From positions 22,258,001 to 22,322,000 of the forward strand of contig OZ004613.1 of the NCBI GenBank assembly GCA_963924565.1: DNA of 64,000 nucleotides, written 5' to 3'. Both the position numbers and the translations under genes were made by a program. This document shows, one piece after another, positions 700 through 64,000 of this stretch. This DNA comes from Ascidiella aspersa (taxonomy: Eukaryota). The number at the start of each line of letters is the position of its first letter. Within the stretch, counting starts at the first letter, position 1. Under the pieces are notes generated by a model that saw nothing but the letters and a program-made list of their open reading frames with translations, was not told the origin of the DNA and searched no databases.

Positions 700-1771
700 A
701 TTCCTAAACGTAAATTGTGCGTACACCTATTTATTTTTGTAAACTCTAATAACTAACTTAGTACTGTCTGCTTGCATTTATTTTTTCAATTGCATTTTAT
801 TGCTTAATTAGCCACAATCTATACCAGTCGCCGGGACTCCGTTTGTTCATTGCAGCTAGAATTTATTGTTTACTGGGATACTTTAACGTTGGCGAAAAAT
901 CTTACAGCGCTCATGCTAGTCGGAAGAAAATTTGCGTCACCGCGTGATATAGCAGCGTAACTTCAAACATGATTACGGCATCGCGAAAAACAGAGAAGAT
1001 AGCGCGAAAAAAACTCAAAGCGGTACAGACAAAAAAATAAACCGAAATTAATAGACGTAAATAACAGGAAACGATGTGGATTGTTAGAACTCGATACACA
1101 GTCAATAATGTCGTTTTCTATGGTCGGTGGAGCGAAACATTTACTGCGATTTGATTTTCAGGCCGGAACTTTATGGTAACGGTAGAGAGACCTACGGAAT
1201 GTTAGGCGTAAGAGAGTAAAAGGCGGAACGTACGTATTAAAAAAACGAACAAAAGCGTTTTGCAGCAGCAGCGGATAATTGCACCGAAAAACAACAACGA
1301 CGATAAAGACGAAACAAATGGGAATGGGTGGAATTTCATGGAAATATATAAAATAGAAAAACAAAGCTGACGATTTGCTTCAGTGAAGCGTTTAAATTAC
1401 AAACAAATCATTGTACAACCGCAAGCGTCCGCCCTGAATACAGACAAAAACTGCAAACTGTTCGGCGCTTTAAATGTAAAGAGGTAAGAAAAAAAAGAAA
1501 CAGAAAATACATCAACTTTGGGTCAGATAAAATTGATTAAAAGTTCGTTTAACGGGGCGTTCTTTCCGGGAATGATTCAAGGGTTGTTGTTTATATTCCT
1601 TAAATACTCCCAAAACAATTATGTGCATCAAGCGTGCAATACATATTGCTCCATCGATGTAATTCCCGCGTACCTTGAGGTCCTATTGAGTCGCACTCGC
1701 TGCTGCGCAGGAGCCCTCTTGCGGGAGCGCCTTTATTCTCGTACCACCGGCAGCTGGCGGCAAAGAGTCGT
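700..1771 (-). other. Probable 3' UTR of the IRF gene with candidate polyadenylation signals
   Basis: AATAAA on the minus strand (plus-strand tttatt) at ~1732, ~862, ~797, ~777 and ~730; the site actually used cannot be determined. Confidence 0.45.
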
Positions 1772-2061
1772 TCAAGAGACTTGTATGGTGCCGTGATGGG
1801 ACAGATGCAAGGACTGCATATGGGGTGAGCGCTGCGGGGGAGAAATCGACCCCCGTCGAATCACGTGGTCAGGTGACGCGCTGGAAGTGGATGACTCCTC
1901 ACGTGACGTCACCTCGGGGGAGTAGTTGCCCCCGTAAGCGCTGACGTAGAGCAGGGAGGGAGGAGAGGACTTGGACTGGCCGGGATAGCTGTGCGGGGTG
2001 ACCGGACTGTTTCTGTCCGAATCGTCGCCGGACGTTCGACGTAGCTTTGCGGGGGAGGCAA
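1772..2061 (-). CDS. IRF4/8-like: IRF terminal coding exon 8 (VASPAKLRRTS...HHGTIQVS*)
   Basis: ctaac...ttttctacaatccattacag| acceptor, phase 1, Ser/Pro-rich ORF ending in TGA at 1774-1772. Confidence 0.85.
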
Positions 2062-5000
2062 CTGTAATGGATTGTAGAAAACTCAGCGTTAGTTGCGCGC
2101 CCTTTGGGACAAGACATGAACTTCATAATTACAAAAAGTTCTGTAAAGAAAATTGGGTCGCCACAGTTGCGCTATTAAACCGACACTTACTATAAAAAGG
2201 TTTAGAAACACTTCTTTAGGTTGAGTAAAACGCACAACGACAGAAGGAAAATCTAAAGTGAACTTGTATTCAAATCCTGTGCAGTGCAAAAATGGCCATT
2301 TGACCTTTTTATGGCGATAATTAATTACCTAAGTTATTCAAAGGCCGACTCAACGTTAAAAGTACCTGTCAAATCGAGCGGAGATCCAACTCGCTTTCTC
2401 TTTAAGTTCTCAGCCGCCGGGGATTCACCTTCTACAGGGTCGGGGTTATAATAACCGCGCGTCGAACCTTCACCTTCTCTAATGCGGGGCAGCGGCGACC
2501 CCCGAAAGTCGTCGAGCCTTCGCTGGGGCGAGCGACCCTGTGACGAGGAGGGCGGTGGGCTCGTGACGTCATCGGTGACGTGGCTTGTGACGTTTATGCC
2601 GTTGATGGCCAGCTGCTTGCTGATCTCGTTGAACGCCCGCTCGCGATTCAGGCTAAACTGGTAAAGCGAGACAAAATTGGTTAGTTTAGCCTTTGCCATA
2701 AAGTATACAAGAGGTTCTGCAATGTAAAAATACGTTGTTGCTGTACAATGCCATACCATCTGTTAACAATTAAAATGCACTGAATTTGTCCTATTGCTTT
2801 GATTAAAGGCCGTTAATTATTTCTGCAGTGTTACTAAACTTGTAGTTTCGCTATATCCATGCGTCGCTAAATGCACTGCAACACCTGATGGATGATTTAC
2901 CATTACATAAGGATAAAATGAATCACGAAATAAGTTGTACATAATTGCCCAATAAAACTTGAAATTGTCGAAAGGCTGATGCTATTTGTTTGCTTTTAAT
3001 TGAAGGAATCTCACCACGCTCACTTTTACCCCTCAAAAACATCAAATTATCCATCAGTGTGCAAATAATCCATGGGAGAACAGTCACCGTATAAAGGCTT
3101 AGCATTTATCATAGCACAAAAAAAAATCCAGAAAAACCCAGGCAATCAGTTTTGTTCTGCTTTAAACGAGCGCGTTTCGGCCGTTTCAAGAACTTAAAAA
3201 CAAATCGGAAGGCGCATGCCTTCATGCTGGCGATTTACCTGATCGCGTGGTTCCGAGCGGCCGGCGCCCGACGAACTGACGTCACCGCTTTGGGGGTGCA
3301 TGTGGACGGCCAGGTTCCGCAGGCCCTCGCCCATGTGTTCCAAGACGCTCTTCATGCGCTCGCGCTCCACTTCTAGTTTCTCGCGCGCCTCCCGTTCTCG
3401 CGCATGCGCACTGCGGAAGTGCGACACCTCGCTCTCTAGCGTCTCTATGCGGCGCTGCGACTCGCCGAGCTTCGTGTACAGCTGGTCGCACTGCGTTGAA
3501 ATATATTGCTGGTTAGTTTACATTGTAGCTTCTAAAACAGGAGTCAGAATCAATCAGATGTAGGGCAACGTGGTTTATTAAAACTAATTAGGCCTACCTC
3601 CAAGTGGCGGCACCGTCTACCTTTGGGAGAATATGGTTGTCCTGAGGACTGGGGCTGATCATTACTGCCACTTCAGGCATTCCCGACCTACTTTTTTGTC
3701 AATGGGAAGAACAAGCCACTTCACCTTTACTTTACACTTACTTTCTTTACTTTTTTTTAGTTCGTTGAAAAAAATTAATAATTAAAACAACAATGTAGTT
3801 CAAGTGGGTCTTGAGTAGGCCTCTGTCGATTTAAAACGATGCTTTGTATAAAACTAAACGCACAACCAAATTTAACTGATTTGCACATTACTGTAACAGG
3901 GTTGCCACAAAGTCTTTGAATCTTTAATAGGCTTTAAATGCCTTCGAATTGATTTACGTATTGAAAAGTCGTTGAAAAACCATAAGTTTTTCTAAAATTC
4001 TTTAGATAGTTTTTCGTCGATTTACTTATTGTCCATCTTGAGTTATGTGTTTAAGAGTGCCGCAGCATAATGTTTTTTAAATTACATTATTTCGTGTTAG
4101 CCATGGTATTCATATATGTATAAACAGTATACTGTTTTGTTATTAAAAAATATTCAAAAACTGTGAAGCGATCTTTGAAAACCTACAATTTTTTTTTTTA
4201 AAGTCTTTAAAATTTTATATTTATTTCATAAATGTCTGGCAGCCCTGTGTAAGAAAAGTGTTCAGCAAAGAGAAATGTTATTTTATATCTGTCAAAGCTA
4301 AAGTCTTAATAAATGGGGTTGTGGACTTTTAATGTCACGCTTTATAAATTAGTTGGGTTTGATAATTACGTTAAGCAAATCAACAAAATATTTCAAGGAT
4401 AAGCAATGATGAGCTTAAAAAGCAAATGCAATAATTTGCTCTAAAATAGAACCGAGATACAATGCGTTTGGTAACAACTGTAAGGAAACTAATGTGTATG
4501 CAAGTGATTTACCTTCTTTCGAACAGTATATAGGATATTTGTGCATTGTTTTACTCTACAGTCTCCAATATAAATATTTAGTACTCAATAAACAAAAACC
4601 ATAAGTTAAGTCGAATCTATAACCAGTATTATTTTGACTAGAATTTTAGTGCTTCGACCAGGTTAAACAGCGCGCCTATGAGCGACAGTCACTGCGAGCG
4701 ATTGTTCAAGACTATGTCCAGCACTTGTGTACATCAGCAAAAGCGCTCTGGCTTTGTGCACAACGCCAAATCTCACACTGCGTGAGAGGCGGCGGCAATT
4801 AGCAAGCGCAGAAGCGCGCGGGCCGCGAAGGCCGCCGGCCGTTGATTTGAATATTATAATTGCGAATTCTGCTTCCCGCCCAGGGGTATAGTGCCGGGTG
4901 CTCGCGCGCGTTTACGGCAATAAACAGTGGCGCGCTTTCGCCCGGACGGGACCAGCCAGTCGGTCTTACCGCGGTGCTCTTATCCTCGCTTGCATCTCTG

Positions 5001-8000
5001 CGCATCTACGTGGTCGAACTTTGCAGCTCTCCAGGCAAAACAGAGACGAGCCACAAATGGAAAGTGAGAAAAGGGCGGTGCCACGAAATGCTTGCCTAAC
5101 ACTGCCGCCGTGCGCTGTAGCTTAACGCGTTCTCGACCAGCGGCACGAAAAGCTTAGATTCCCGACGCCGTGCGAAATTTAATCTTTCTTAGAGACCTCT
5201 GCGATTTTAACTGCCTGGATTTGTTTTTTTGGCAGCTTTTTGCGAATACCAAGTTTAGTTCGTTAAAAATTATGGCATTATTTTTAAATGAAAATGCTTT
5301 GTCCCAGTTGGCAAACTTACGTTTTTGCGAATTTCGTCGGAATCGAATCCGTTGTTTTTCTCGAGTTGATCGAGTCTTCTGTAAAGTTTTCTTTCTTCTG
5401 ACCTCAGCTTGTTGTTCTCATTTTCCAATTTACGAGCAAAGGTCTAAACCGCAGAAACAAAAGATTTCTCAGAAAAATTGAACTTTTATTGTTTAAAAAT
5501 GCTTTTATTGTTTTAAGTTGCTATTCTGTGATTAAAACCGTGCACTTTTGCTACTAACTTAAACGGCTGAGCATCCTTAAAAATGAGCACGCTTAATATG
5601 TGTTGTTCTGCATTGCTGATCAAGATTGTAATCTCGCTTTCAAGAGGCACTTTCTTCAAGAGCGTGGAGAGGTAAGGACATTTTGTATTCGCCCACCAAA
5701 TATCGCAAGTCAAAATGCCATCCCACGTTTAGATGTTATTTCCCCGGTTTCAAGCGATTGGCGCGGTGTCGCAATTTTATGTAATTAACAGGAGGGGCAT
5801 TTCCCAGCGCAGTCTGCCGCGAGCCAAATCGCGGCACAATGTGGCGCAAGCCACAATTCTCAGAGACTTATAGCTTGCGGCGGCCTGGCCGGTCTCTCTG
5901 TGTGCGTGCCGTTGCTTTCTTTTGGAAGCTAGGAGTACTAGTTTTAATGCACACGGCACAACTAAGCCGCCATATTAAACGCCACGCAACGCCCGCAGAA
6001 CCGGAATCCTGTATTTCGCGCATCGAATCGCGAATAATAACACCTTGCCAACGTAGTCGGACTGCGGCTGATTTTTTATGTCGTCAAATGGCAAGCATGC
6101 GTCACGACGCAGTAGTGCGTCAGCATGTCTATTCGCAACGCCAGGTCAGCACACTCACCAGCTGCTCTTGGTACTTTTGTTCGACCGCGATCGCTTGCGC
6201 CGTCATGTGCTTGAGCGGTCCCATGATAGCCGGGTTGTTGAAGGCGAAGGGATTCCTAAGACCTTGGGACGCAGAAAACACAGGGGGAACCGTGGCAGCC
6301 GCCGCAAAGGAGCTGTGGAAGCCGGGCAACATGGGGTAGCGCGCGTTGATGGGGCTCAGGTCCGGTAAGGCGACGTGAGCTGGGTCTTGGGGTATGCCGT
6401 CGGTGGTTGGGAGAGGCAAGGGAAGCATCGCAGACGACATCGGGGGCTTGAAGGGAATTCCGCCGGTCTGTGAGAACCAGAAAGCCGGCGAGTTGAGCTG
6501 GCTGGCGCTCGATGTCAGGAGAGGAGCTGCGCGTGGCTGCGGCGGCGAGGCGGTGAAGCGTTGCACTCCCTGCACCGAGAGGAAACAATATGGAGATGGT
6601 TGGCAAACTATCTATAGCGCTAGCGTTTTTTTTTTTGCTTTTATACCCTGAAGGTGACGATGTTTCAACGAGATGGGGTAAAGTGTAGAAAAGTGCCAGA
6701 AAATGGAGCCATTTGGAATTAATGTATGCTGGCCGCGTGATTACATCATCGCCGAAAAGCCTTTTTTGTGTTTTTTGCAGTTACATTAATACGATTTTGC
6801 TTTATTTCATACTATTTTTTGATAATCTTGTTGTAATGATTTTAAAGCAAAAAAAAATAAACTTTCACACATTTGCGGAAATATTTCATTCCTTTGGATT
6901 CCATTGTTACCTCTGAGGAATTGTTTCTTCGGTAGGTGCTGAACGGCTTGGTCCAGCTTTCGTTTTCCATTGGGTGCAAGTACGATGACGTAGGCGACAC
7001 GCTGCTTGATGACGTCATATGGTCAGTGTCGTGGCTCTGGCTGCGCTTGTAAAGTCGACGACGGATTTGCGATGCTAAACAAAAGAAGAAAGCGTTACTT
7101 TAACCATAAGTATACGCAAATCTGCTTATCTAAACTGCTTATCGTTTTCAGAAAATGTTCAGTAAAGATTTTAAAAAATAAAATAAACAGTATCTTAATT
7201 TGTTAAAAACTGCATTTTTAATGTTTTGTCAACTGGACAAAGTTTAATCATAATTTTTAATCCAGTTATTTAGCTTTCAGCGTTATTAAACTACACAAGT
7301 CCTCAAAACAGTTTTTGCTTGCGACTGACTTCTTAGCCTTTAGTGAATATTGTCGACAATCTCGCAGCACTCTGGTTTTTCGGTTGACCGAAGTTTCAAC
7401 CAACAAAATAATACTTTTAAGAATCGACCGCCATTTAACCTTACAAAAGCCTACAAATGGTTTTCATTTCGAATGGCTGAAGTGTCGCCGAATCGCTTAC
7501 GGCCCAGGTCGCATATCGCTAGCCTTGGCGGCCGAATAGCGAGCTAAAAATCAACATGTCGCAGACGTCTAGTTTGTATATTTTAAAGTTTGCCAATATA
7601 AACTAAATTTGCATATCATAAAGTAGTAAATTTCAGACTGGGCTTTAGCTACATTGGCTTTTAAAACAATGATAACAATACGTCGTCATGGAAATAATGA
7701 ACTACAAGTTTTCAGGAGTCTGGCAAGAATCGCTGGCGACTAACTTCGTTTCCAGGAAACACGCCGCTGCAAATCGCAGCACTCAGGTTTTCAAAGGACC
7801 CTGACTGCGGCACGCTCGCTCACCTTTATGCACAGGCGGCAGAAGCTGGTATACTCGATAGGGTTCGCTGATGTCCAATCGACTGCGATCCGGCAACTCT
7901 CGAATGTCCGGCATCTTGTTGAGGGCGCACCTCAGCCGAGTCTTCCACACTATTGGCTCGGGTTTGTCAATACCTTCCCTGTATCTGCCGCTGTGTTTGG

Positions 8001-11000
8001 CCCAGGCCTGTACGGGAAGAAATACAATCGCAATTTAGTTGATTGGAGCCAAGTGCCTTCAAGCCTGTGGTGAGGGCTCGAAATGCAAATTGCTTCATTT
8101 AGGCGCAGTTAAAATTCATCTCACAATTACTGGTCGCGTTCGTCGGCCATATTAAAGTCACGTGCACAAATGTAAGTGTTTATTGCGCGAGGAAGATGTG
8201 GTGTCTTACTCAGTACAGCAACGAGTGTATAATTTTATCCTGAAGCTATCCCAACAATTAATACCAGAAACAAATTTTCTCTCTTGTTCAGCACTTTAAA
8301 AAACGTTCACTTGAATAGGGATTGAACGTAACTTTAAGTCAATAGCATTTTGTTGGCTGCAGAGCTTGGCGCCCCAATCGGAGGACCTAATTTGCATGCA
8401 ATTTTTGCCAGCGGAAAGTGCCCCGTCTTGCACTGCAGCGATTACCAGGTAACCGGGAAAGGCGCATTACTGCGAGCGCGACAAGATCTGTCGATGCCTT
8501 CTCTCACGAGCGACGGTATTTTTGTCCAGTCTATATAAACCCAGGAGAAATACTCGCGCTATCGCTGCTCTAATCCTGAATCGAAACGGACGCGCGGCGC
8601 TACGGCAGGGAAATGTGTCAACATTAAATCAAAAATAACTCTGACCAGCGCAAACAAGCGACCATCATTGAAAAACTAACTTAACCGGTACAGCGTACGG
8701 GCCTGCTAAAATCACGATGCAATTACCAGTTCTGGGAAGGCATCCGTCAGGATTACGTTGACGGACTTGGGAGAGGAGAAACTTCGTTCCCGTGATCCGA
8801 CGCGTATTAATAACGTTTCGCTCATTCGACGTGGTGGAAAATTGTCGACGGGCGCTCACAATCTATTTTTGATTCCAGGCGTTTTGTTTTATTTCACCGT
8901 TCCTAATGACACCTTTGTTGTCCACAACACGCTGGACAACAAGCCTAAACACCCGCGCTAACTGTGTGATGTGGCAGCGGACATTATATTTCGTGTCGAT
9001 GGGACGCTCACTAATTAATTCCTCTCAATTAAAATACTCACATCGCGGGATAAATGGGACAGCTTACGTATATACGACTAATCTGTTGTCGCAAAGTTAG
9101 AAACCAATGCAAAAGTTGCTCCACAAGTTTATGTTTAACGCTTGCTGCAGTTGTATGAGTCACACCAAACCGCCAAACGACAGTCTGATCTTCAAGTTTA
9201 GCTGAACTTTTGCGCTGCTAAACATTGCCGCCGCCATTTTGGATGAATCATTTTTATTTTCGTTAATAAGTTTTGGTGGTCGGGCTAATTCAAACAAAAA
9301 AGAATCGTTCCGACGCAACTTTGCAAAATATACCACAAGATAGCTGAGATCAAACTCGTTCCTTACCATAAAAATCTTTGAATCCTCATCCAAGTTGTAA
9401 TCTTGTCTTCCAGCGTGCTTCCAAGGCATTCGGAAAATTGTGTTTTCGTCGTTTTCCCATACTAGGCCTGGTATTGTACCGCTGTCAAAAGCAAGGCGAT
9501 AACATTACAATATTCTCTACAACGCACAGTATCATCTTGGGGTGATTGAGCTTTTTGTGTTTGTGCTTAAATAGTTGCAGCTGATTTTCAAGTATTAAAA
9601 TTGTTAAAATGTCGGTTACTGCTTAATATGTGATTGCTCCTTTGCTCATAGTGGCTCGTATCGTTTGTCACTACTTCATACGTTTAATGCCGACAAAGTT
9701 ATCACTTGGCTACTGTAGGCGTGACGGTTTACTATGGGTAAGATGCCCTTCTCATGATGTTTGACTAGTTCGCTATACATCAGTCGCAACCAGGGTCGTG
9801 CTCTTTGCAATCAATAATCGTGTAATGACTACTGCCCAATGTAAATAAAATTTAGATTCATCGCATCTCTGTTGTCGTCATTGCTATCCGTAACGTAGCT
9901 TTTTTACACACAAGATTCATAAACATGTATACATTTATTGAAACCGGCGGAGACGCCAAACAAAGCAAGTTTTATAAAAGTTGTTATTTGGTTTTTGAAG
10001 TGACAACTTTACATGTTAAATACCTGATAGGATGTTAAAAAACGTAAAACTGTAACTCAGATGTACAGTAGCCAAGTTCTAAGAACGGTAGGTAAAAAGA
10101 AAAATTGTTTTCTGACCATTCGCCATTCTCGAAGGTTCCCCCCAATTCATTCTTACTTAAATAATTAAGCAGCCTCAATGGTTTTAATTTTTTTTCTTTA
10201 ATTTTAATGACGACTCTAATGCACACTTTAAAACATTAAAATTTGCGAAAATTCGTTAAGAATATTAAAAAAAAACATGTGTTTTTGTAGTGAAACGCTA
10301 ACGCAAAGAAACGAAAAACTGTATCAAAACTAAAAAAATGCCAAGTTTATTATATTTTTTAATTTTGCGTTATTGCAAAATTGTAAACTCAAGTATAACA
10401 TTTTATGTTTGTTGCATTTCAATAGACGAATTTCTTGCATTATAAATTTAAAAACATGTTTCAGCTTTCTGCTTTAACAAAACCTAATAATTCCATATGC
10501 TATACATTGCGCCCATTTTACATTTGTGTCGTAATCTTTGATAATTTCAACGGTTTTAACGTGGAAAGGCAGGCTCATTGTTGGAAAATAATCCCTAGGC
10601 TTACTTTATCGCTTGTAAAACTCGCAGCTATCGTTTCAAATATACATTAACCTTAAAAAGATGTTCGATTAACACAGTGGGCCTGTGTTTGAGTTACAGC
10701 AGAATAGAATCAGTGTTATAGAGAACGTTGCATATAAATCATCGTGTGTTTGCAAAATTACAAAGTTCGCCTTGCCAAAAATGTCGACATTAACCTTGAG
10801 CAGAAGTCAAGAGCCTAACGGTATATATATATATGCGTTACCCAATAGTACCTTTATTTCGTCCAAAATGATCCCACGTATTTTTGTGCTTTGACTTTTC
10901 GATCCTAATCGCTGCGTAAAATTTGGTGTTTCAACTAAAGTGGGTGGCGCAAGTAGGGTTATTTTGAAATTCATGCCGCGCTTTATCCGAAACGTTTGAA

Positions 11001-11234
11001 GCTGAAGTGTACATTAGCGCGCAATTTAACTTCCAACATATCGTAATAGGCTGTAAAAACTCGTATCAATTACATACAAACGTTGTTTGAACTGTTCTCG
11101 GAATCTTACCTGTGAATCATCTTGACGAGCCATGTTCTAAGTCGGTCTCGATACTCTGGTGCATAAATTTCCGAATCTGCGCTGTCTTTTCCGTTGGCTA
11201 TCGTTTCGTCTGTTGTGCTGCCTTCCATGGCCAT
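1772..11234 (-). CDS. IRF4/8-like: Interferon regulatory factor, IRF4/8/9/10-type DBD with atypical coiled-coil C-terminus; join(11234-11110,9481-9367,8007-7824,7074-6911,6569-6159,3490-3239,2657-2366,2061-1772), 1833 nt, 610 aa
   Basis: Eight GT-AG-bounded exons join with matching phases (2,0,1,0,0,0,1) into one ORF from ATG to TGA. The N-terminus has all five IRF tryptophans: RLRTWLVKMIHSGTIPGLVWENDENTIFRMPWKHAGRQDYNLDEDSKIFMAWAKHSGRYREGIDKPEPIVWKTRLRCALNKMPDIRELPDRSRLDISEPYRVYQL. WKTRLRCALNK and PWKHAGxQDYN are characteristic of the IRF4/8/9/10 group. Confidence 0.93.
2366..2657 (-). CDS. IRF4/8-like: IRF coding exon 7 (FSLNRERAF...KRKRVGSPLDLT)
   Basis: ctaac branch-like site plus ctttaccag| acceptor; AG|GTACTT donor, with an alternative in-phase donor at 2429. 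Confidence 0.82.
3239..3490 (-). CDS. IRF4/8-like: IRF coding exon 6, coiled coil (CDQLYTKLGESQRRIETLESEV...EPRDQ)
   Basis: tttcaacgcag| acceptor, CAG|GTAAAT donor, 252 nt, heptad pattern. Confidence 0.85.
3590..3760 (+). repeat. Possible 3' end of a SINE/LINE with a (TTTAC)n-like tail
   Basis: A GC-richer block ends in ctttactttacacttactttctttac; a similar tail occurs at ~27727-27748. Confidence 0.3.
3897..4247. mobile_element. MITE (CAGGGTTGCCA-type TIR) in IRF intron 5
   Basis: TIRs cagggttgcca / tggcagccctg, flanked by the direct repeat tgtaa. Confidence 0.65.
6159..6569 (-). CDS. IRF4/8-like: IRF coding exon 5, Pro/Ala/Ser-rich linker (GVQRFTASPP...EQKYQEQL)
   Basis: tgtttcctctcggtgcag| acceptor, |GTGAGT donor, 411 nt open, GC-rich coding-like composition. 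Confidence 0.88.
6911..7074 (-). CDS. IRF4/8-like: IRF coding exon 4 (ASQIRRRLYKRSQSHD...RRNNSSE)
   Basis: ttcttcttttgtttag| acceptor, AG|GTAACA donor; phase 1-0 exactly bridges exons 3 and 5. Confidence 0.88.
7824..8007 (-). CDS. IRF4/8-like: IRF coding exon 3 (AWAKHSGRY...WKTRLRCALNK...PYRVYQLLPPVHK)
   Basis: tttcttcccgtacag| acceptor, AG|GTGAGC donor, 184 nt, DNA-recognition helix. Confidence 0.97.
9367..9481 (-). CDS. IRF4/8-like: IRF coding exon 2 (GTIPGLVWEN...PWKHAGRQDYNLDEDSKIFM)
   Basis: cttttgacag| acceptor, |GTAAGG donor, 115 nt, clear IRF DBD motif. Confidence 0.96.
11110..11234 (-). CDS. IRF4/8-like: IRF coding exon 1 (MAMEGSTT...RLRTWLVKMIHS)
   Basis: ATG in aaattaaATGG context; donor AG|GTAAGA; upstream acceptor ttttttgtag| places the exon start at 11265; contains the first DBD Trp. 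Confidence 0.9.
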
Positions 11235-54725: not shown

Positions 54726-57700
54726 GGCAACTCTATTCCCACAGAATCGGTTTGAAAGGCTTGGTTTAGAATTTAGATGGACAGCGAAAGTGCGCTTAGC
54801 GCCGATGAAAGGCTGTCGTTTCGCTGAGCTCGCTGTTTGCCTTCATTCGAAAATGCTCCACGTTTTGGACACGTTCCAGTGGATCTATGGGTTCTACCCG
54901 CAATCTCAACGGTTTCGCGCCAAGGCTAACACAGTGAGCTATTTCACATTTTTTTACTATGGGTAAAACAGGTGAAATTTAACATTTTTTGTGGGTTACA
55001 CGTGGAGGAATTTTGTGAATAACTGGTGTGAAAAACATAATACCAATTAACTATGCAGTCGTACATCGTATACGAAAGCAGTATTGGCCGACCACTTAAG
55101 GCTCGCACGTAAAAACAACCTTTTTTGTTCGCTACAGGTTTATTAGACACTATAGTTTTAAAAAAGGTTTGCATTGCTGGCCTGACCTGGACCGCTTGAT
55201 TGAGTTAGATTATAACAAAAATACTAATTTTTTGGCAACTAAAAATTAAGTTAAGATCCAACATTTAGTCAAATAAAGTTTAGTTTACAACCATTTCTTT
55301 GCGGCATGGGAAATTAGAAGGGTAGGATTTTGCGTTGGATTTTCAGCCAAACCGGAAATTAGAATAAACCAAAACAAGCTAAGTACAAATATTATTTCAA
55401 TAGAAGTATTGACAGTTCGCTGTTTATGCTTATGTTGGACCACTGGAATTATCTATTAGTCGGAGTCTGCTCTTGTCTAAAGGAGGCATATTATACCCGA
55501 GCGCACCAACCAAGGTCGAAAACGGAAGAAAGATTCCGTTGAATTTCCCACCGAAAACGAGCTCGCCCCACGCTCTCCCGAATCCCTACTATTGGCCGGA
55601 ACAGATCGGTTTCATTGGCGCTGTCAACTTGAGTAAGCCGACACCCGTGCGATCTCCCGCCCCTCGCCAACAGACGGGCCGTCTGTAGTGTTCCACGGCC
55701 GGGACACGAAGGCCTCTGTATGCTATGTGTGACTATACACGGGACTGTTGTGGCTGCCTTTCGCAGTAGAACGAACAACGGTTCGCTCCGAGCCCGGGAG
55801 CACAATGCTTCGGCGAGGTCTTCCGCCGGAAAACAAAGGCACGATGCGCTAATGGCAACTTGTCGTGCCGGCAGCGCTTTTCTGCTTTCAAGGGGAGCAA
55901 ACGTTTTCGTATACACTTTTAGGAGGTCGGTATACAGCTAACAAAAACCAACAACGTACTGAATGGCAGCGTTGTGACCGCTAATTTATAAAAGAGTGAA
56001 ACAATCTAGTCCGTACTGGTAGTTCTTATGGGACCAATATAGATATAAGGGCAAAATTAATTATAGATATGTAGGGCTTGCATAATACGTTTTCTATTCG
56101 TAGTTTATTAGCTTGAAAAATGTTTGTGTTCTTGACCCATGTCTTAAGAGCACAAAAGTTGTTTTGGTGGTAAGGCGTATATCTAAATTATAGTGTAACG
56201 AAATTCGAACAATTGACTAAATTTGTTTTTTGAAAAATGAATCAAACGGTTGTGACATTCGGGTAACATGAGCTATGATTGCACAACATCCTTGGTGTAT
56301 CCAAAAACATCACCCATATATCAATGTAAATCACTTCTGGAAAATCCAGCCATTACACTTTTTAGGCCCCAAAATGAAACACAAAACAGCGCAAATTCTT
56401 TCAATTTGACAATGATTTAACTTTAGCAAGTTATAATTTGTTGTTGATTTGATAGATTTTATCAACCTTAAGCTGCTCTAAAAAAACATTTTAAAGGGTA
56501 ACCTATCAGGGCACATTTCACAGACATCGCAAATTTTTAGCGATCTCAGATCCGCATGCTGTTAAATGTTTTTCTAACAAGTCTAAATTGTTGTTATCCT
56601 GCATAATGTCAGTTAAAACAGTTATTGGTATATATGCAGGTCAGCAACCGATTGAGCCATTTAATGTTAAAATTTCAAGAATAGTTATTTTTAACTGGTT
56701 GTTTGTATACATGTTTTCTCGCCTTCTCTAAGATAGGAACAGTTTTAAGTTCTTTCAAATAACACTTAATTTTTGAAAGAAGTGGCAAATTAAACTTACA
56801 CTTCGTTAAAAATGTCACTAAATTACCGTTTATCGCACGTTTATCGTTTTCGAATTTCCGGATCTACTTATCCCGCCATAAACGCTCCCTAAAAGTACTG
56901 GTTGTTGTCTTAAGAGATGACCGGTTGGTTTCAAACCACATCGCTGAAAGCAGCGAAACAAAAGCGCGCGTTTATCGTCCATTTCCTGGCATGGCCCGCT
57001 GCGGTTTTCTTGTTGGTACAGGCGCGAATAAAATAACACGGGGCTTGTTTCAATCTGCCGGCTCGCCCGCAGAAATAAGGTGCGCGGAAACTCGTCTGTC
57101 ATCGAAGGCGATAAAATCTATAGCGACAAGAATAACAGTTACGATCCACCACCGTTGGCTACATCGCTTTTGTGAACGACGGGCGAGCCATTAGACCAGC
57201 AGATAACAATCGGTTTCGTTTTGTTTCGTCGAACCGGCGATCGCCCAACGCTTCTCGGAAGACCGTCATTTTGAATAATTTTTTGTTGTCGTTTGACGAA
57301 GACGCCATATAATAGTGGGTCGGTTTGTTTTCCGTTACTGAAACTAGAGTTGGGTGTGGTTTTAGAGGCAAGTATATGGGCTCTCTTAAATTCAGCTTGT
57401 AACAAGGTAGAAACATTTAACTTTGAAAAATCCAACAAGAATTTACAGAAATTGAAAGGGTGCATTAAGAGCCTAACAGCTTGCTTCCTATTTTTACAAA
57501 GCGGTTAACGACATTATTAGTGATTCTTGATACAAATAATAATTATTTGTTCCAGATAAATTAAGCAGTCAATTTGTTAAACAAACCACACTTAATGTTG
57601 TTTTTTTTTCGTTTTAGTTAACCACGCGTATTGTTGTTTTTTGTTTTTTCTTACCACACATATTGTTTGTTTTTCAGAAAACCAACGCTCCTTTGCCGCC

Positions 57701-59062
57701 GTTAGCGGACGTGCACTCAAATATTTGTGACCTCGAGATGTCGCTGAGTGTTTCGTAAGGGCAGATACGGACAGCGGCAACATAAACAAACAGTCATCGT
57801 CGCGGAAAAGTGCCTTGCCAATTAGGCAGCATCCTCCGGAACCACACAAACGCGTGTGGGCTCGACAGCACTGAATGCCGTCGTCGTATGCTTCGCATAG
57901 CGTGAAAAGTCTGATTTTCACGTAAGCGTCGTTTCTTCGGAACTGAAAGTCGAAGGCGGGCGGTCGATTGTGATTTATTTTAATTGATTAAGCGATGTCA
58001 AACGGGAGCGCGTGTGGCCGAAAAGCGACTCGCGCCGTTTCTTGTGTAAATAAACAAAACTTTTCGCTGCAAATCTCCGTCAAAACGTGATCATGAAAAT
58101 AGCACGCTTTCCGGAGATAAATCACAGCGTTTAAACAGCCAGCAATAACGGCATAGTTTTGCGTCCGAGGTTCTCTGCAACAGTCTTCTGTAAAGCTATA
58201 AACAATTATTGTATAACTTCCAGGACAGAGATGTTTGACACTATTTTGGAACAAAACTATCGCGAACCGGTAGCGAACAACGTCATTATCATGTCAAAAA
58301 AAAAAGAAAAAAATTGAAACTTTCAAAGGAAACATTTTTTTAGGTTGATAGGCCAAATTTGTTTTTACGTTAAGAAGTTTAGTTATTTGCACTACAATTT
58401 TTAATAAATTTGCGTTTAAAAGAAAATGGCTAAAATTCTATTTGTTAACACTGTATCGGAGCAACACCAATACCACTCTTGTATCGAACGAGTACCAATA
58501 CAACCACTTTGAATCGGGTATAGGCTGCTATCCGATGTTATGGTACAAATATTGAATCAATTCCTTAAACAATATTGAGTGGTAATCATCCTGTGTTTGA
58601 AGTGGCCGTTATCCTGAAAAGTGAAAAGGAAATTACCTCGGCTCGTGCTTAGAAACATCGTCTCGAGTGCTACTTTAAAGATAACAACAGACTCTTGTAA
58701 ACTCCACACAAAGCAGTAAGGAGCAGGCAACATTAGTAAATATTGCCCGGACTGCTAGTTTAAACGACTGTTGTAATCGAGGTTTCTTGCTTTTTTGTTG
58801 TTTAACCCGACTGAAATCAGCTGAACAAAATAAATTTTCAAATGAATGACTAACATTTTTAGATTTGATTTAAAAAAATTTAAGACTATTTATTAGCAGT
58901 TAAGGCTTTATTAATCAGTAAGAAGTTAGGCACGCAGTGGAATTTTTTACCATTTTCTCTTACATTTTACTGTTAATATTTTTATGGATAGTTTACCTAC
59001 ATCAATTTTTTGAAGAAAATATTTAAGTAATCTATGGAGTGGGAAATCACTAGTTAAATTAA

Positions 59063-59201
59063 ATGGAATTTGGGGATTGTTGCGACGTGTATTGTACGTC
59101 GTGTCGCATCTGGTATCTACGCGTCTTGCGACCAGGCGACACAGTTCCATTTCGAAAACCCAAGTTCGTTCTTCCGCTAGGTGTGTCTGAGATCGTCGTT
59201 G
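59063..59201 (+). CDS. MS4A-like: MS4A-like exon 1 (Cys-rich N-terminus, start of TM1)
   Basis: In-frame TAA directly before the ATG (aaattaaATGG); G|GTAAGA donor. Confidence 0.8.
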
Positions 59202-62200
59202 GTAAGATTTAGGTCTTATTTTCTTTGACTGGTGCATTTTAATTGCTTGTTTTAGTCCTTGAAGGGACTATGAAATGTGAATTCTTTTTATTCTAAATTT
59301 GATAATATTATCTTTTTATAAAGTAATTTAAATAATATAGGCTATTAACAATCATTTTACTTTTTTATGTTACTGCATCATAGTTGTCTTGCTTAAAATA
59401 AGTTAATTTGGACATACTATGTTTGAATATTGTTTTAGAAAAAGAACAAAACAAATAATTTTTTGGGTTGATGTTACTGGTCCTTTAACAACTTTGTTCT
59501 TATTTCGTGTCTTAAAACATAAAAAAGTAGCAAATAATATATTGTTATTATTGGCACTGGGATTATCCTGCTCTTTAAAAGAAGATCTTATTTGTGCCTT
59601 TGGCGTCTTTTTTGTTTTTTGTAAAACGTTAAAAATCTTGAACTGCAAAAAGGTCCATCAATGGATAGTAATGAGTCAGCGTGCTTTAAACTTACAATTA
59701 GATAAATGTTTTTAATTTTTATTTTTTTACTTTTATAAAATAATAGTGTTTGCTTATTGTAATGATGTGAGCGATAAATAATTATAATCCATATTTTAAT
59801 TTGTGTGTCCATTATAAAAAAACACACTTGTGTAAACAACGCAGTTCTTGGTTAAGAAAAACAATCAAGATTTGGCTGGAATTCTTTATTTCAAATTGTG
59901 ATGTTATGTAATTTCAGCTTTAGTGGTGATTGTGCTTGACGCCCTTGCGTTATACTGCCAAGGCCAGAAGAGCGCTGCACCATCACCTTCATTCCTGGGA
60001 AGTCCAGGCTTCCCATTGTGGTTGTCGATTTTGGTTTGTTTGCTTTCTATTTGCCCTACAAGTTATCTATCCTTGTTTAAAACAGTATTTTTAGTTTATT
60101 TTGCCTACAGTGTTGTTTCATTTTCGTACAGCACAAATAAAAAAATGGTTTGCTGTTTGATATTCCAATAAAAAATACCGTGTATATTTCAACTAATTGT
60201 AAGACCTGTTGTTGTCTTAGTTTGTACTTGCTGGGTGCATTAACGTGGCTTCCTACAAACACAAGACCAGGTTTATGGTAAGCTTGATTCCTAATTTGAA
60301 CTAATGCAGCGGTCCCCAACCTGGGGGTAGTAAATGATATCCCATTTTTAATTTACTTAACTTCAGTTTATTATTGTTCAGTCATAAGCTCAAAATGTTT
60401 TATTTTATTGTGAACAAAACTCGTTAATGGCGCTATTTAAGGCCTAAATAGTAATTTTATGGAAAGTCGTACATGGTTTAACAAACAACTTAGGATTTAA
60501 AAAAATAAAAAAGGGGGTCGCGAGAACCAAATTGTTGAAAACCACTGACCTAATGCAATGTTTTTTTAATTATGCAAAAACCATTGATTAATGTACCACT
60601 TTTAATAAACGACAATTGTAAGTATTTAACTAAAGAGTTGATTTCTCCGCCTTTTCGATATAAAAAGATGTGGCTTCAAAAGCTAGCGATAAATCTTTTT
60701 CTTTGTTGTTTATGCAGACCGCCATTGCCTTAGGATCGTCGCTCGTAGCCATGGTCCTGGTCGTTATTTTACTGGCCGTCATAACTATGTCGATTGCACA
60801 AGAGGTATACAATTAAAGTTCTAAAACAGGGGTGTCCAACTCAAACATGCCGGCGTACCAATGTTTATCTTATAACTTCTTTTCGTGCCGAAGTTTCGTA
60901 ATTAATTCTTTTTAATTTTAAAAGCGCTTTTTTTGCAAAAAACAAAAGCGTTTATTTATACAAAAAAAAACATTTGTTGTTTTAATCAAGCAAATTATTC
61001 ATAATTTACCAAAGCAGATTTTTTGCAGACGTTTGTTTTCAGCCAAACTTTAAAGATAAATTGGCCTTGTGTAGTAAAACTGTGCATTACGGCGTATAAA
61101 TATCCGTCGGTGAGCTGACTTTTGCTTTGTGTTTATTTACACCAAGCTATATAATTATGTGAAACCCTCCACTACAGTAAAATTTTATAACATCAGAAGT
61201 AATTGTTAGTTGTCGTGATTGCCGCGATTGTTTTATATTGTGAATAAACAAAGGCAATTGGCTGTATAACAAATTTAGTATTTTTGGACAATTGGCTATA
61301 TAACAAATTTAGTAATTTTAGGTGAACTTACGTGCCATTTTTTATGAGGTCGCATGCCATATTTGGCACGCCTGCTGTGTGTTGGACACCTCTGTTCTAA
61401 ACTATAAAAAATTGCTTTTTTGGCCAAACATTTTGTACAATCTTTACTTTTACTTGAAGTTGGTGTTCTACCACGAGAAAGGAGGTGCCAGTGGTGTCGT
61501 CATCAGTTGCGTCATCTGCGCTCTCGTGCTCGTCCTGCTCGGTGTGACGTCAACGTCTTCGCTCTTGTGTTATCTGGCGCTGACATCACACGACGACAGG
61601 TGGTTCACCGACAGGGTAAGTACCATGTTTGTAAGTAATAATTTTCCAATATTGTATAGTTGAGTACACAATATACTGGTTTTTCTTTTTTTGCATTTGC
61701 GATACAAAATATAAGGGTAAAAAATGCGAATATTTGCCAAAGCATTTTTTTGCGCTCTATGGAATGTATGTGCTTATTACCATGATTTAACGTAACATTT
61801 TTATGAGGTTTTAAACAGTGGTGGGATTCAGCCGGTTCGCACCGGTTCTATAGAACCGTCTCACGCAATTTTATGAGATCAGCGAACCGGTTAGCATTAC
61901 TGGTTATGCTTTCAATAGATTTTTGCATCTTATCTGATACACCGATTTTTGAGATCCAAGTAGGTCACGTGTTTTTTTTCGAAATGTGCAATGGTCAAGT
62001 TCCCACTAGCAGTTGTACATTGTGTTAATTTTTATTTTTATAATTGTTGTAATTTTATGTTTGTGATTGTTTGTCTGAAAATTGAATTGTTGCGTCATAA
62101 GCACGAGTCTTGAGACGACTGCTGCTTTTAGTGTGGCTGTTAGCTGTGTCGATTTATCTTTGTAAAACGAAGTTCTGTCGTTCATATAAAAATAATCAGT

Positions 62201-64000
62201 TTATTTGCCGAAAAATATGACTTTTTGTAACAGAACCGGCTGAAAAATTTGACTTTTTGTAACAGAACCGGCTGACAAAAAATTTGAATCCCACCACTGG
62301 TTTTAAACCGTTGACATACTAAAAATATTTATGTTATAATGGTAGTGACTGCGAACGATATTTGTTAATACTTTTTATAAATTGAACTTCACACATCTGA
62401 TGTAGCGTTATCCCGCGTTAGGCAAGTGAAATAAAATAGCTCCTACATTTCTCTGGTCAGGGTACTCAATACGACTCCGTTGCATCGTCTAGCGGAAATA
62501 CAGGAAACGCGAAATTGAGCGTGCCGAGCGGTCAGCCGGCCTTTCTGTTTTACGCGCCTTCCAACGAAGCCAGTAAATATACATCGGTGTTTAACGATGT
62601 ATTCAATCGAATAAATGGTAAGAACATAGGCAATAAATTTTATTTTCTTAAAAAAAATAAATGCAGTTTTTGAAAATTGTTCAAAGTTAGATAAGAGCTT
62701 ATGGATGTAAGATGTTATTTACTCATTGCAGACAAGAGTCGTTCAGCAATGTATGACGAGTGTGATGACGAGACGCAGGACGGACGGAAAACAGAAGGCA
62801 AGTTAATTACCGTGCAGCTGACTGGAAGGTCCATTGGACCCTTCGCTGCTCCGGCCGTATCGCGCGTGAATTTGTTTTTTGTTATAGCTTACTTGAGTAT
62901 TTTAATTTAAGCGCTAACGGAAAAATAAACATTACTTACTGACATTACTTACTTAATCTAAATGTAATGTCTGTTTACTGCATATACTTACACTTTATAC
63001 CAACATAAACGTTGTGCCAAAATTATAGCTTATTTGAAAATGATTTCGAGTAAGATTGTTAGCTCTACTCTTTTTTTTCGTTTATCTGCATATCGTTTCA
63101 ATTTTAAAGGCAGTTTTTAAAATGCCTGCAGTTCTTTTAATGCATTATACATTGCAAAATTAACTTTACATCATTACGCGATTTTTTTACGCTAACATCT
63201 GTTTGTTGTATAAGTTATAATGCACCACATTTTAAATAAGGTAATAGCGGTCAAACAAACTTCAGCTCATCGGATATTTTATTCGGTAGGTGTTTTGAAC
63301 TTGGTGTAAACTATTGGTTTCCATACAAACAAAATACCCATATTATCAATGGCAAACGAAGTCCCAACAGACGATTATTACTTTTTGTATTTATTAGGTC
63401 TATTCGAGTAAAAATAAACTACGTTTAGATCACAAACGTCAACTGCCTTCGTAAGTCTTGCGTTTTAGTTGCAAATGTTAAATGACATTGGCCATTTATA
63501 CATAAGGATTTCTGATTATACCAAAATGCTCAGACGACTTACGCTCTTTTTAAAAACAAATATGTAATTAACGAAACCACCATAAAAGGGGAAATACGAC
63601 ATACGATTGAATTAATTGCTCGCTGAATAACTTTGTGACCCATTTTTGAAAATCTATTGTCAAACAAATTCCAAACAACCAATAGTCGCTATATGCTGGT
63701 TTAGCGCATGCAACGTCCCTCTCAATTTGCACAAAAATCAATAAATTCAAAGCGAAACAGTTGAAGTTCCACATCTCGGGAGTTGTACAAATTGGAAGTT
63801 ATTTATCTTTGGCAGGTCGAGCTTAAATCTCAACACTCACCAAGAGCAAAAGCACAGGATTTTGATTGCGATTTAACCAAACAGAACCCAGCAGATTCCA
63901 AGACGTGTGGGCATGCGAAACAAACCTAAACCGAACACGTGTTTCCGTTCTTGTTTGCAGAACTGAGCGATGCGGGAACCCTTGAGCCACCGGCCGACGC
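59063..64000 (+). CDS. MS4A-like: MS4A/CD20-like four-transmembrane protein, 3'-partial; join(59063-59201,59918-60033,60221-60277,60718-60804,61460-61615,62461-62617,62732-62797,63961->64000)
   Basis: Phase-consistent exons (1,0,0,0,0,1,1) give MEFGDCC...KPKFVLPLGVSEIVVALVVIVLDALALY...GFPLWLSILFVLAGCINVASYKHKTRFMTAIALGSSLVAMVLVVILLAVITMSIAQE...GVVISCVICALVLVLLGVTSTSSLLCYLAL... There are four hydrophobic helices. GFPLW resembles the MS4A GYPFW motif, and a 57-nt phase-0 exon after it matches the MS4A layout as I recall it. Confidence 0.8.
59918..60033 (+). CDS. MS4A-like: MS4A-like exon 2 (TM1 end, loop, GFPLWLSIL)
   Basis: atttcag| acceptor, |GTTTGT donor, phase 1-0. Confidence 0.8.
60221..60277 (+). 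CDS. MS4A-like: MS4A-like exon 3 (FVLAGCINVASYKHKTRFM)
   Basis: ctaat branch-like site, gttgtcttag| acceptor, |GTAAGC donor, 57 nt. Confidence 0.85.
60307..60547. mobile_element. Degenerate hAT MITE in MS4A-like intron 3
   Basis: TIR cagcggtccccaac/gttgaaaaccactg; TSD aactaatg/acctaatg (7/8). Confidence 0.72.
60718..60804 (+). CDS. MS4A-like: MS4A-like exon 4 (TM3)
   Basis: ctttttctttgttgtttatgcag| acceptor, AG|GTATAC donor, strongly hydrophobic 29 aa. Confidence 0.85.
60827..61394. mobile_element. hAT MITE in MS4A-like intron 4
   Basis: TIR caggggtgtccaac/gttggacacctctg; TSD ttctaaaa/ttctaaac; same family as 23251-23513. Confidence 0.88.
61460..61615 (+). CDS. MS4A-like: MS4A-like exon 5 (TM4)
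   Basis: ctttacttttacttgaag| acceptor (weaker AAG), GG|GTAAGT donor, 52 aa hydrophobic. Confidence 0.8.
61816..62299. mobile_element. Young hAT MITE in MS4A-like intron 5
   Basis: Perfect 15-bp TIR cagtggtgggattca/tgaatcccaccactg; perfect TSD gttttaaa; subterminal aaccgg repeats; internal 32-bp-period duplication at 62218-62275. Confidence 0.93.
62461..62617 (+). CDS. MS4A-like: MS4A-like exon 6 (cytoplasmic tail with TQYDSV and SKYTSV)
   Basis: catttctctggtcag| acceptor, G|GTAAGA donor, open in phase 0-1. Confidence 0.78.
62732..62797 (+). CDS. MS4A-like: MS4A-like exon 7 (DKSRSAMYDECDDETQDGRKTE)
   Basis: ttatttactcattgcag| acceptor; the 3' end assumes a GC donor AG|GCAAGT (otherwise the frame reads on to TAA at 62910). 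Confidence 0.62.
63961..64000 (+). CDS. MS4A-like: MS4A-like exon 8, partial (ELSDAGTLEPPAD...)
   Basis: Strong acceptor tttccgttcttgtttgcag|; open in phase 1, runs off the window. Confidence 0.6.

Follow-up and report, generated by a model that had tools for sequence, protein, structure and literature searches.

An MS4A-like gene in Ascidiella aspersa

We analyzed a 64,000-nucleotide (nt) stretch of the genome of the ascidian Ascidiella aspersa (assembly GCA_963924565.1, contig OZ004613.1, positions 22,258,001 to 22,322,000 of the forward strand), hereafter called the window, whose right end contains a gene encoding an MS4A/CD20-like protein with four transmembrane segments (TM1 to TM4). The gene comprises eight exons on the plus strand, from 59063 to past 64000. 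Joined, they keep phase and read through 272 codons without a stop before the window ends, with four hydrophobic segments ahead of the tail. An earlier note on this DNA had singled out the span 62461-62797, which corresponds to exons 6 and 7 of this gene, and had proposed that two tyrosine motifs in the tail make the protein an inhibitory receptor or co-receptor.

Exon 1 (59063-59201, 139 nt) encodes the predicted cytosolic N terminus and the start of TM1, exon 2 (59918-60033, 116 nt) the remainder of TM1, a Pro/Ser-rich outer loop 1 and the first half of TM2, and exon 3 (60221-60277, 57 nt, phase 0/0) the end of TM2 and a short basic inner loop. TM3 lies in exon 4 (60718-60804, 87 nt), and exon 5 (61460-61615, 156 nt) contributes a tiny outer loop 2, TM4 and the juxtamembrane sequence SHDDRWFTDR. 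Exon 6 (62461-62617, 157 nt) holds the G[TI]Q closing the juxtamembrane motif, a variable linker and a conserved block, and exon 7 (62732-62797, 66 nt) an acidic, poorly conserved part of the tail that includes Y245. The gene leaves the window in exon 8 (from 63961 to beyond 64000), whose phase fits and whose start aligns with an RKTx[DE]FSD stretch of the Phallusia and Clavelina proteins. Acceptors are AG and donors GT throughout, with the sole exception of a GC donor after 62797. Intron 7 is therefore of the GC-AG type (62798-62803), whereas GT stands at the same place in L001, an independent relative found on a metagenome contig. The exon sizes (139/116/57/87/156/166/66) and phases of L001 are those of the window, except for exon 6 (166 versus 157 nt). 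No second copy of the gene was found within the window.

A search with exon 5 led to a Phallusia mammillata protein, 73% identical over this exon, and from there to Ciona LOC108950622, to Clavelina and Styela proteins and to several exon-sized fragments. The named orthologues, from Ciona intestinalis (LOC108950622, XP_078492758.1), P. mammillata (CAB3263317.1), Clavelina lepadiformis (LOC143465568) and Styela clava (LOC120341260), are all annotated as "uncharacterized," and they resemble the window protein across the N terminus, the four TMs and a block of the tail. All named full-length orthologues are ascidian, in agreement with the earlier assignment to an invertebrate chordate. The gene is the A. 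aspersa orthologue of Ciona LOC108950622, a member of the CD20/MS4A-like tetraspan superfamily that is conserved in ascidians. A literature search made mostly without subscription journals found no paper naming the orthologue identifiers and no study of this gene, and the available part of PMC7776563 contains nothing on it.

The annotated orthologues have exons 5 and 6 joined, with the conserved WFTDR-G[TI]Q spanning the junction. Because of this, we infer that exon 6 is coding and included in the mRNA of A. aspersa as well, as the earlier note had presumed. Where Ciona isoforms differ, they do so precisely at the boundaries between exons 2 and 3 and between exons 4 and 6. Among the annotated proteins P0033, P0004, P0032, and P0034, the Ciona isoform X4 lacks exon 5 with its TM4, so that its tail would end up outside the cell, and further models from Ciona and Phallusia have 17 to 20 extra residues within TM2, apparently from a short intron left unspliced.

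The protein is a member of the CD20-like superfamily

The assignment to an MS4A/CD20-like four-TM family was borne out by profile and fold comparisons. Four of the five alignment members matched Pfam family PF04103 (CD20); with 33.3 bits (E = 6.1e-8), the Styela orthologue scored above the family cut-off of 27.9. Scanned singly, the seven exons of the window gave no Pfam match. A search of 1.84 billion representatives gave 12 matches, all but two of them from the orthologue group; these two were carnivore MS4A proteins (E = 1.7e-5 and 6.1e-4). Searching the profile against the PDB returned FceRI-beta as the best match, across all four helices (E = 3e-5), and in the ESM Atlas a CD20-like cluster ranked first (0.91), while the partial Phallusia protein gave only matches under 0.9.

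For both the Ciona and the Clavelina protein, the model contains four confident helices. With both models, Foldseek placed FceRI-beta first (E = 1.4e-4 and 5.4e-4). VIA-align likewise ranked it first, superposing it over 146 aligned residues with a Z of 16.8 and a root mean square deviation of 3.0. Sequence identity in the top structural alignments was 13 to 20%. CD20 (MS4A1) and a four-TM subunit of the dystrophin-glycoprotein complex showed the same four-helix arrangement (Z of 12.6 and 13.9), but they ranked below FceRI-beta, fell within the range of generic bundles and gave no match in the profile-against-PDB search. The search output names only the complex; we take the subunit to be sarcospan.

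We then compared the MS4A signatures listed in a review (PMC11663944), namely LGAXQI, GYPFWG, FIISGSLS, SLX2NX2 in TM3, and a Cys pair in outer loop 2 of most members. The TM1/TM2 signatures are diverged but recognizable in the ascidian proteins (LGVSEI, or LGVAQI in P0034; GFPLWL; FVLAGCIN) and stand in register with those of FceRI-beta and MS4A3-like sequences, the GFPLW of exon 2 being comparable to GYPFWG and FVLAG to FIISGSLS. However, the TM3 signature Asn is a Ser in the window, and outer loop 2 consists of a few residues with no Cys. Absence of these two listed features weakens membership in the narrow MS4A family, although MS4A8B and MS4A12 likewise lack the Cys pair (PMC11663944). 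Furthermore, the mammalian matches have no counterpart of the N-terminal and tail motifs described below, and the portion of the tail seen in the window contains no immunoreceptor tyrosine-based activation motif, unlike MS4A2. The 57-nt exon 3 aligns with 19 residues by which isoform X1 of a lynx MS4A3-like protein exceeds isoform X2, which points to a shared exon; the mammalian 57-nt exon is deduced from this isoform difference, and the literature search, within the limits given above, found nothing on MS4A exon sizes. Taken together, we assign the gene to the CD20-like superfamily rather than to the orthologues of a named MS4A.

Both termini would lie in the cytosol, a topology suggested by homology (PMC11663944), by the basic loop between TM2 and TM3 and by the non-hydrophobic N terminus. 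A cytosolic tail, as presumed in the earlier note, is thus the most likely arrangement.

An MS4A-named ascidian gene has already been annotated: Ciona Ms4a15/2 (KH.C2.4, Pem-7), a maternal postplasmic RNA and germline marker (PMC11094015; bioRxiv 10.1101/2021.07.12.452040). It is probably a different gene from LOC108950622. Translations of its probe primers had no match in the Ciona orthologue protein, though the primers may instead match untranslated parts of the transcript.

The ITSM and ITIM matches of the tail are not conserved

Both tyrosine strings on which the inhibitory-receptor proposal was built are present in the joined exons. Defining the ITIM (immunoreceptor tyrosine-based inhibitory motif) as S/I/V/LxYxxI/V/L and the ITSM (immunoreceptor tyrosine-based switch motif) as TxYxxV/I (PMC8631942), we found in the translation of exon 6 the ITSM-consensus hexapeptide TQYDSV (62464-62481, Y189) and the ITIM-consensus hexapeptide SKYTSV (62572-62589, Y225), 36 residues apart. 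The further acidic YDECDDE downstream is also there, in exon 7 (Y245, codon at 62752-62754). When the 100-residue tail was shuffled 100,000 times, both motifs turned up together in 0.09% of the shuffles. Of the 313 six-frame stop-free stretches of 60 or more residues in the window, 2 contained both, one of the two being exon 6 in its own frame. The pair is thus rare for one tail, yet a whole genome should contain several such pairs by chance, and this is a post hoc test.

To follow the motifs among orthologues, we compared eight tails: the window, L001, Ciona, Clavelina, Styela, P. mammillata, and the fragments P0012 and P0014. A second Clavelina allele was left out, as was L002, a near copy of L001; these two loci, obtained in a metagenome scan, are 99.9% identical to each other and were counted once. 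Strict ITSM and strict ITIM occur in the window only and in none of the eight non-window rows (seven distinct lineages), including the Ciona, Phallusia, Clavelina, and Styela orthologues. In the column of Y189, Tyr is present in three of the seven sequences covering it, while Ciona has Cys and Clavelina, Styela, and P0012 have His; at +3 from Y189, Val or Ile appears in the window alone. At the second site, the Tyr (Y225) is kept in all eight tails, but the consensus around it is not: Ser at -2 is found in 1/8, and position +3 is Val in 3/8 and Ala in 5/8. Y245 is Tyr in only one of six. P. mammillata retains both tyrosines and neither of the +3 hydrophobic residues (TQYDAT and NKYTSA).

The two sites also lie in differently evolving parts of the tail. 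Between the window and L001, the proportion of nonsynonymous differences (pN) was 0.07 for residues 173-188, 0.50 for 189-201, and 0.10 for 202-233; pN is given without a ratio to its synonymous counterpart (pS), which is near saturation. The fast stretch contains the ITSM Tyr and its +3 residue. The ITSM match results from a variable position directly after the conserved G[TI]Q, and the ITIM match from a Val in place of the usual Ala at 228 together with a Ser at a freely varying position. On these alignments the two matches are most likely accidental, an outcome the earlier note had itself allowed for such short motifs. That note had also named non-conservation of the motifs as the result that would tell against a tandem inhibitory co-receptor, and this is what we found; the inference of an inhibitory receptor is therefore unsupported.

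PD-1 and BTLA offer a useful comparison. The hexapeptides of the window fit the same published consensus strings, but in these receptors the ITIM comes first and the spacing is 25 residues (PMC8631942; PMC12151841), whereas the window has the ITSM-like string first and a spacing of 36. An ITIM followed by an ITSM at about 25 residues is the typical layout and not an obligatory one. Moreover, PD-1 and BTLA have a ligand-binding ectodomain, which the window protein lacks, and the PD-1 motifs are conserved from sharks to humans (PMC12151841). ITIMs have also been noted in Ciona Ig-domain proteins (PMC4016189).

One could nevertheless suppose that in one ascidian sub-lineage the old scaffold acquired a tandem module of tyrosines and that the phosphorylated tail in these species recruits an SHP-2-like tandem-SH2 phosphatase, the protein acting as an inhibitory co-receptor. 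The rarity of the pair among shuffles would agree with such a gain, as would the Tyr found at 189 in all three closest sequences and the tail of L001, which has TQYEIL (a loose ITSM) and AKYTSV. In addition, the gene stands head-to-head with an IRF-family gene, and MS4A8B and TMEM176B are listed as ITIM-bearing (PMC11663944), so that a real ITIM in an MS4A protein would be nothing new in kind. However, L001 (row P0003) fails both strict motifs, and the most similar sequence, that of P. mammillata (66/85 and 81/110 identities to the window, versus 56/85 and 79/110 for L001), lacks both +3 hydrophobic residues. Beyond the reversed order and wider spacing, the window has Asp and Thr at pY+1, the position next to the phosphotyrosine, and in PD-1 either residue there failed to recruit SHP1 (PMC8631942), a result that bears on SHP1 and not on SHP2. 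With Y225 also placed on a hydrophobic helix face (see below), we regard such a gain as very unlikely.

The same tyrosines could instead be read as YxxPhi endocytic or sorting signals (YDSV and YTSV), an alternative raised in the earlier note. Both strings of the window fit this pattern, L001 has two such sites and P0012 has one. The tails of P. mammillata, Ciona, Clavelina, Styela, and P0014 have none, however, and two or more YxxPhi sites arose in 11.5% of the tail shuffles. With sites so poorly conserved, a sorting function appears most improbable.

Three putatively cytosolic elements are conserved

In contrast to the motif consensus, three other elements on the predicted cytosolic face are kept among the orthologues. 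The first is the N terminus (59078-59152), where C7, D8, C11, T12, I16, Y18, L19, R23-D26, V28, and F30 are invariant in 7/7 covered rows, giving the pattern C-D-x-x-C-T, I-x-Y-L, R-P-G-D-x-V-x-F, which recurs in a second alignment. The cysteines could be palmitoylated or could bind metal together with the invariant H177 and D178.

The second element is the juxtamembrane motif, S176-H-D-x-R-W-F-T-D-R-G-[TI]-Q188 (SHD[DN]RWFTDRG[TI]Q). Its end, D-R-G-[TI]-Q, might be a binding site for the dynein light chain LC8 (DYNLL) that dimerizes the tails, in which case the "ITSM" would be the TQ anchor of this site. Indeed, D-R-G-[TI]-Q is present in all covering rows with a Thr/Ile exchange at -1. At -4, -3 (taking K or R there), -1, and 0 it agrees with the consensus [D/S]-4 K-3 X-2 [T/V/I]-1 Q0, and it also resembles VSRGTQTE, a sequence obtained by phage selection (PMC3078936). 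Ciona, with TQCD as in the binder Ana2, is alone in fitting the full [TVI]-Q-[TVCI] anchor. The +1 residue is buried and must be mid-sized (PMC6607443), and the binder table of that paper, read by eye and by text search, has Thr, Val, Cys, and Ile at this position and no Tyr or His. In contrast, six of the seven sequences have Tyr or His at +1, Tyr in the window, and the motif lies about 12 residues from TM4. We therefore think LC8 binding very unlikely as the explanation of the motif.

The third element is a block of the tail, residues 202-233 (62509-62604), made of L[ST][VI]P, PAFxFYAPS and an amphipathic helix in which Y225 and F229 never vary. P207, P211, A212, F215, Y216, P218, S219, Y225, and F229 are identical in all eight tails. 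A helix after APS, covering the second Tyr, is predicted in both AlphaFold models (Ciona and Clavelina proteins). Over 18 residues its hydrophobic moment is 0.37 to 0.61, with a shuffle P of <0.05 in six of the eight sequences, and Y225 points 10 to 46 degrees away from the hydrophobic axis. Both the alignment and the models thus suggest that Y225 is kept within Y-x-x-[AV]-F-x-[DN]-[VI] as part of a helix face. SH2 domains bind extended phosphopeptides. The pattern F-x-F-Y-A-P-S-x-E...Y...F-x-x-V (62542-62604) bears a possible likeness to the last strand and helix of PH domains, being one residue shorter. Pairing of an N-terminal strand with a strand of the tail was rejected; it had low confidence in one model and was absent from the second.

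Y216 and Y225 might still be true phosphosites, serving a reader other than an ITIM-binding one or acting as a switch in which phosphorylation of Y225 releases the amphipathic helix. Both residues are Tyr and never Phe in 8/8 tails, and MS4A tails have been described as carrying SH2/SH3-binding sites (PMC11663944). The flanks, however, are kept as a hydrophobic and structural pattern (F215, A217, P218, S219, and F229) and not as an acidic kinase context, and the invariance of the tyrosines would be explained equally well by packing with a hydrogen bond. On balance, we consider phosphosites of this kind unlikely.

RNA evidence, repeats, and the neighboring IRF gene

The RNA data consisted of about 6 in 100 of one run with the same species label. 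Depth was zero in the bins covering exon 1 and the greater part of exons 6-7, no splice joint was among the rows listed, and 94% of the placed reads diverged from the window sequence further along (repeats). These reads neither demonstrate expression nor exclude it. Upstream of the coding exons, a tentative non-coding 5' exon on the plus strand (57678-57921) has an AG acceptor, a GTAAG donor and a few stranded reads, with no junction read; mean depth was 2.84 in the bin 57701-58000, the first mate being on the minus strand.

A polymorphic, high-copy repeat of 150 bp (62803-62952) begins 5 bases into intron 7 and is bounded at both ends by a TTAA duplication. Contig depth in the bin 62801-63100 reached 4318 and 8901, compared to about 70 to 130 in the adjoining bins. 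Contig 13 of another DNA run (X2) joins 62802 to 62953 and thus lacks the repeat, which indicates that the frame continuing after 62797 is non-coding. We accordingly rejected the possibility that exon 7 is read through to give a hydrophobic C terminus, since the frame would enter this repeat and the L001 gene has its splice site at the corresponding position. Intron 5 contains a high-copy element (61816-62299) resembling a miniature inverted-repeat transposable element, with 15-bp terminal inverted repeats, and further repeats lie in introns 3 and 4. An Rfam scan of the window gave no match.

At the other end of the window, at about 1700-11200 on the minus strand, lies a gene for an IRF-family transcription factor (Pfam IRF, E = 2.3e-11 for 9163-9504), with further pieces of the IRF DNA-binding domain near 11141 and 7947. 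It is oriented head-to-head with the MS4A-like gene. About 46 kb separate the two, a regulatory stretch that is long by the standards of a compact genome, and the 96 open reading frames (ORFs) of 80 or more residues between them gave no Pfam match. Downstream of the IRF domain, a coiled-coil ORF (3194-3517, minus strand) has weak, sub-threshold leucine-zipper matches, and the five IRF-side ORFs scanned contained no IRF association domain. If the coiled-coil ORF belongs to the same gene, the C terminus of this IRF is unusual.

Discussion

From the observed gene model, homology and conservation, and from the predicted four-helix fold and tail helix, we consider it reasonably probable that the protein is an accessory tetraspan whose tail docks by means of an extended segment and an amphipathic helix, a module that would act independently of phosphorylation. 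CD20 and sarcospan are accessory membrane organizers. Like these and FceRI-beta, the ascidian protein would be an accessory or organizing subunit of a membrane complex, its four helices packing against a partner within the membrane. The outer loops seem too small for a typical ligand-binding ectodomain, so that the ascidian-specific function would reside on the cytosolic face, where selection would maintain the N-terminal Cys motif, the juxtamembrane SHD[DN]RWFTDRG[TI]Q and block 202-233. The helix would dock through its hydrophobic face (Y225, A/V228, F229, and V/I232) without phosphotyrosine, either to a partner protein, to the cytosolic face of the protein itself or to the membrane.

Several observations weigh against this reading. 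As to the family, the Ciona (23.3 bits) and Clavelina (24.5 bits) orthologues fall below the PF04103 cut-off of 27.9, and generic four-helix bundles reach a Z of 14.8 in the fold comparison. As to the tail, the confidence of the models there is low or moderate (predicted local distance difference test scores of about 46 to 50 in one model and 70 to 78 in the other), and the invariant Y216 and Y225 could still be phosphorylated. Only eight tails were compared, and the orthology of three of them rests on similarity. Additionally, L001 carries two YxxPhi tyrosines at the window positions and Tyr is shared at 189 by the three closest sequences; trees of six orthologues left the relationship of window, L001, and Phallusia unresolved and the shared descent of the L001 YxxPhi pair undecided. 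Finally, the accessory role and the docking function, partner included, are predictions.

A further alternative combines two of the proposals above. Here an ancient ascidian MS4A would carry a previously undescribed cytosolic module with the invariant Y225 as a phosphorylation switch, and the sub-lineage of the window species and L001 would have gained the second Tyr and the +3 hydrophobic residues, and with them a tandem SH2-docking inhibitory tail. We hold this to be very improbable. If true, we would be seeing an ITIM/ITSM pair in the course of its evolution, on a tetraspan of the group that is sister to the vertebrates. An inhibitory receptor, that is, a pre-vertebrate SHP-recruiting tetraspan, would matter more than the accessory tetraspan that we favor, but the evidence is against it.

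A phylogeny published in 2010 found invertebrates to be without MS4A-like genes and considered that resemblances could reflect convergence (PMC2826416). The profile match across four helices, the fold and the shared 57-nt exon argue instead for common descent with MS4A, and on this evidence the MS4A scaffold would predate vertebrates. As annotation, this is already known from Pfam-annotated CD20-like clusters in mollusks and from Ciona Ms4a15/2. The conserved block of the tail, for its part, represents a small but testable lead in the model organism Ciona.

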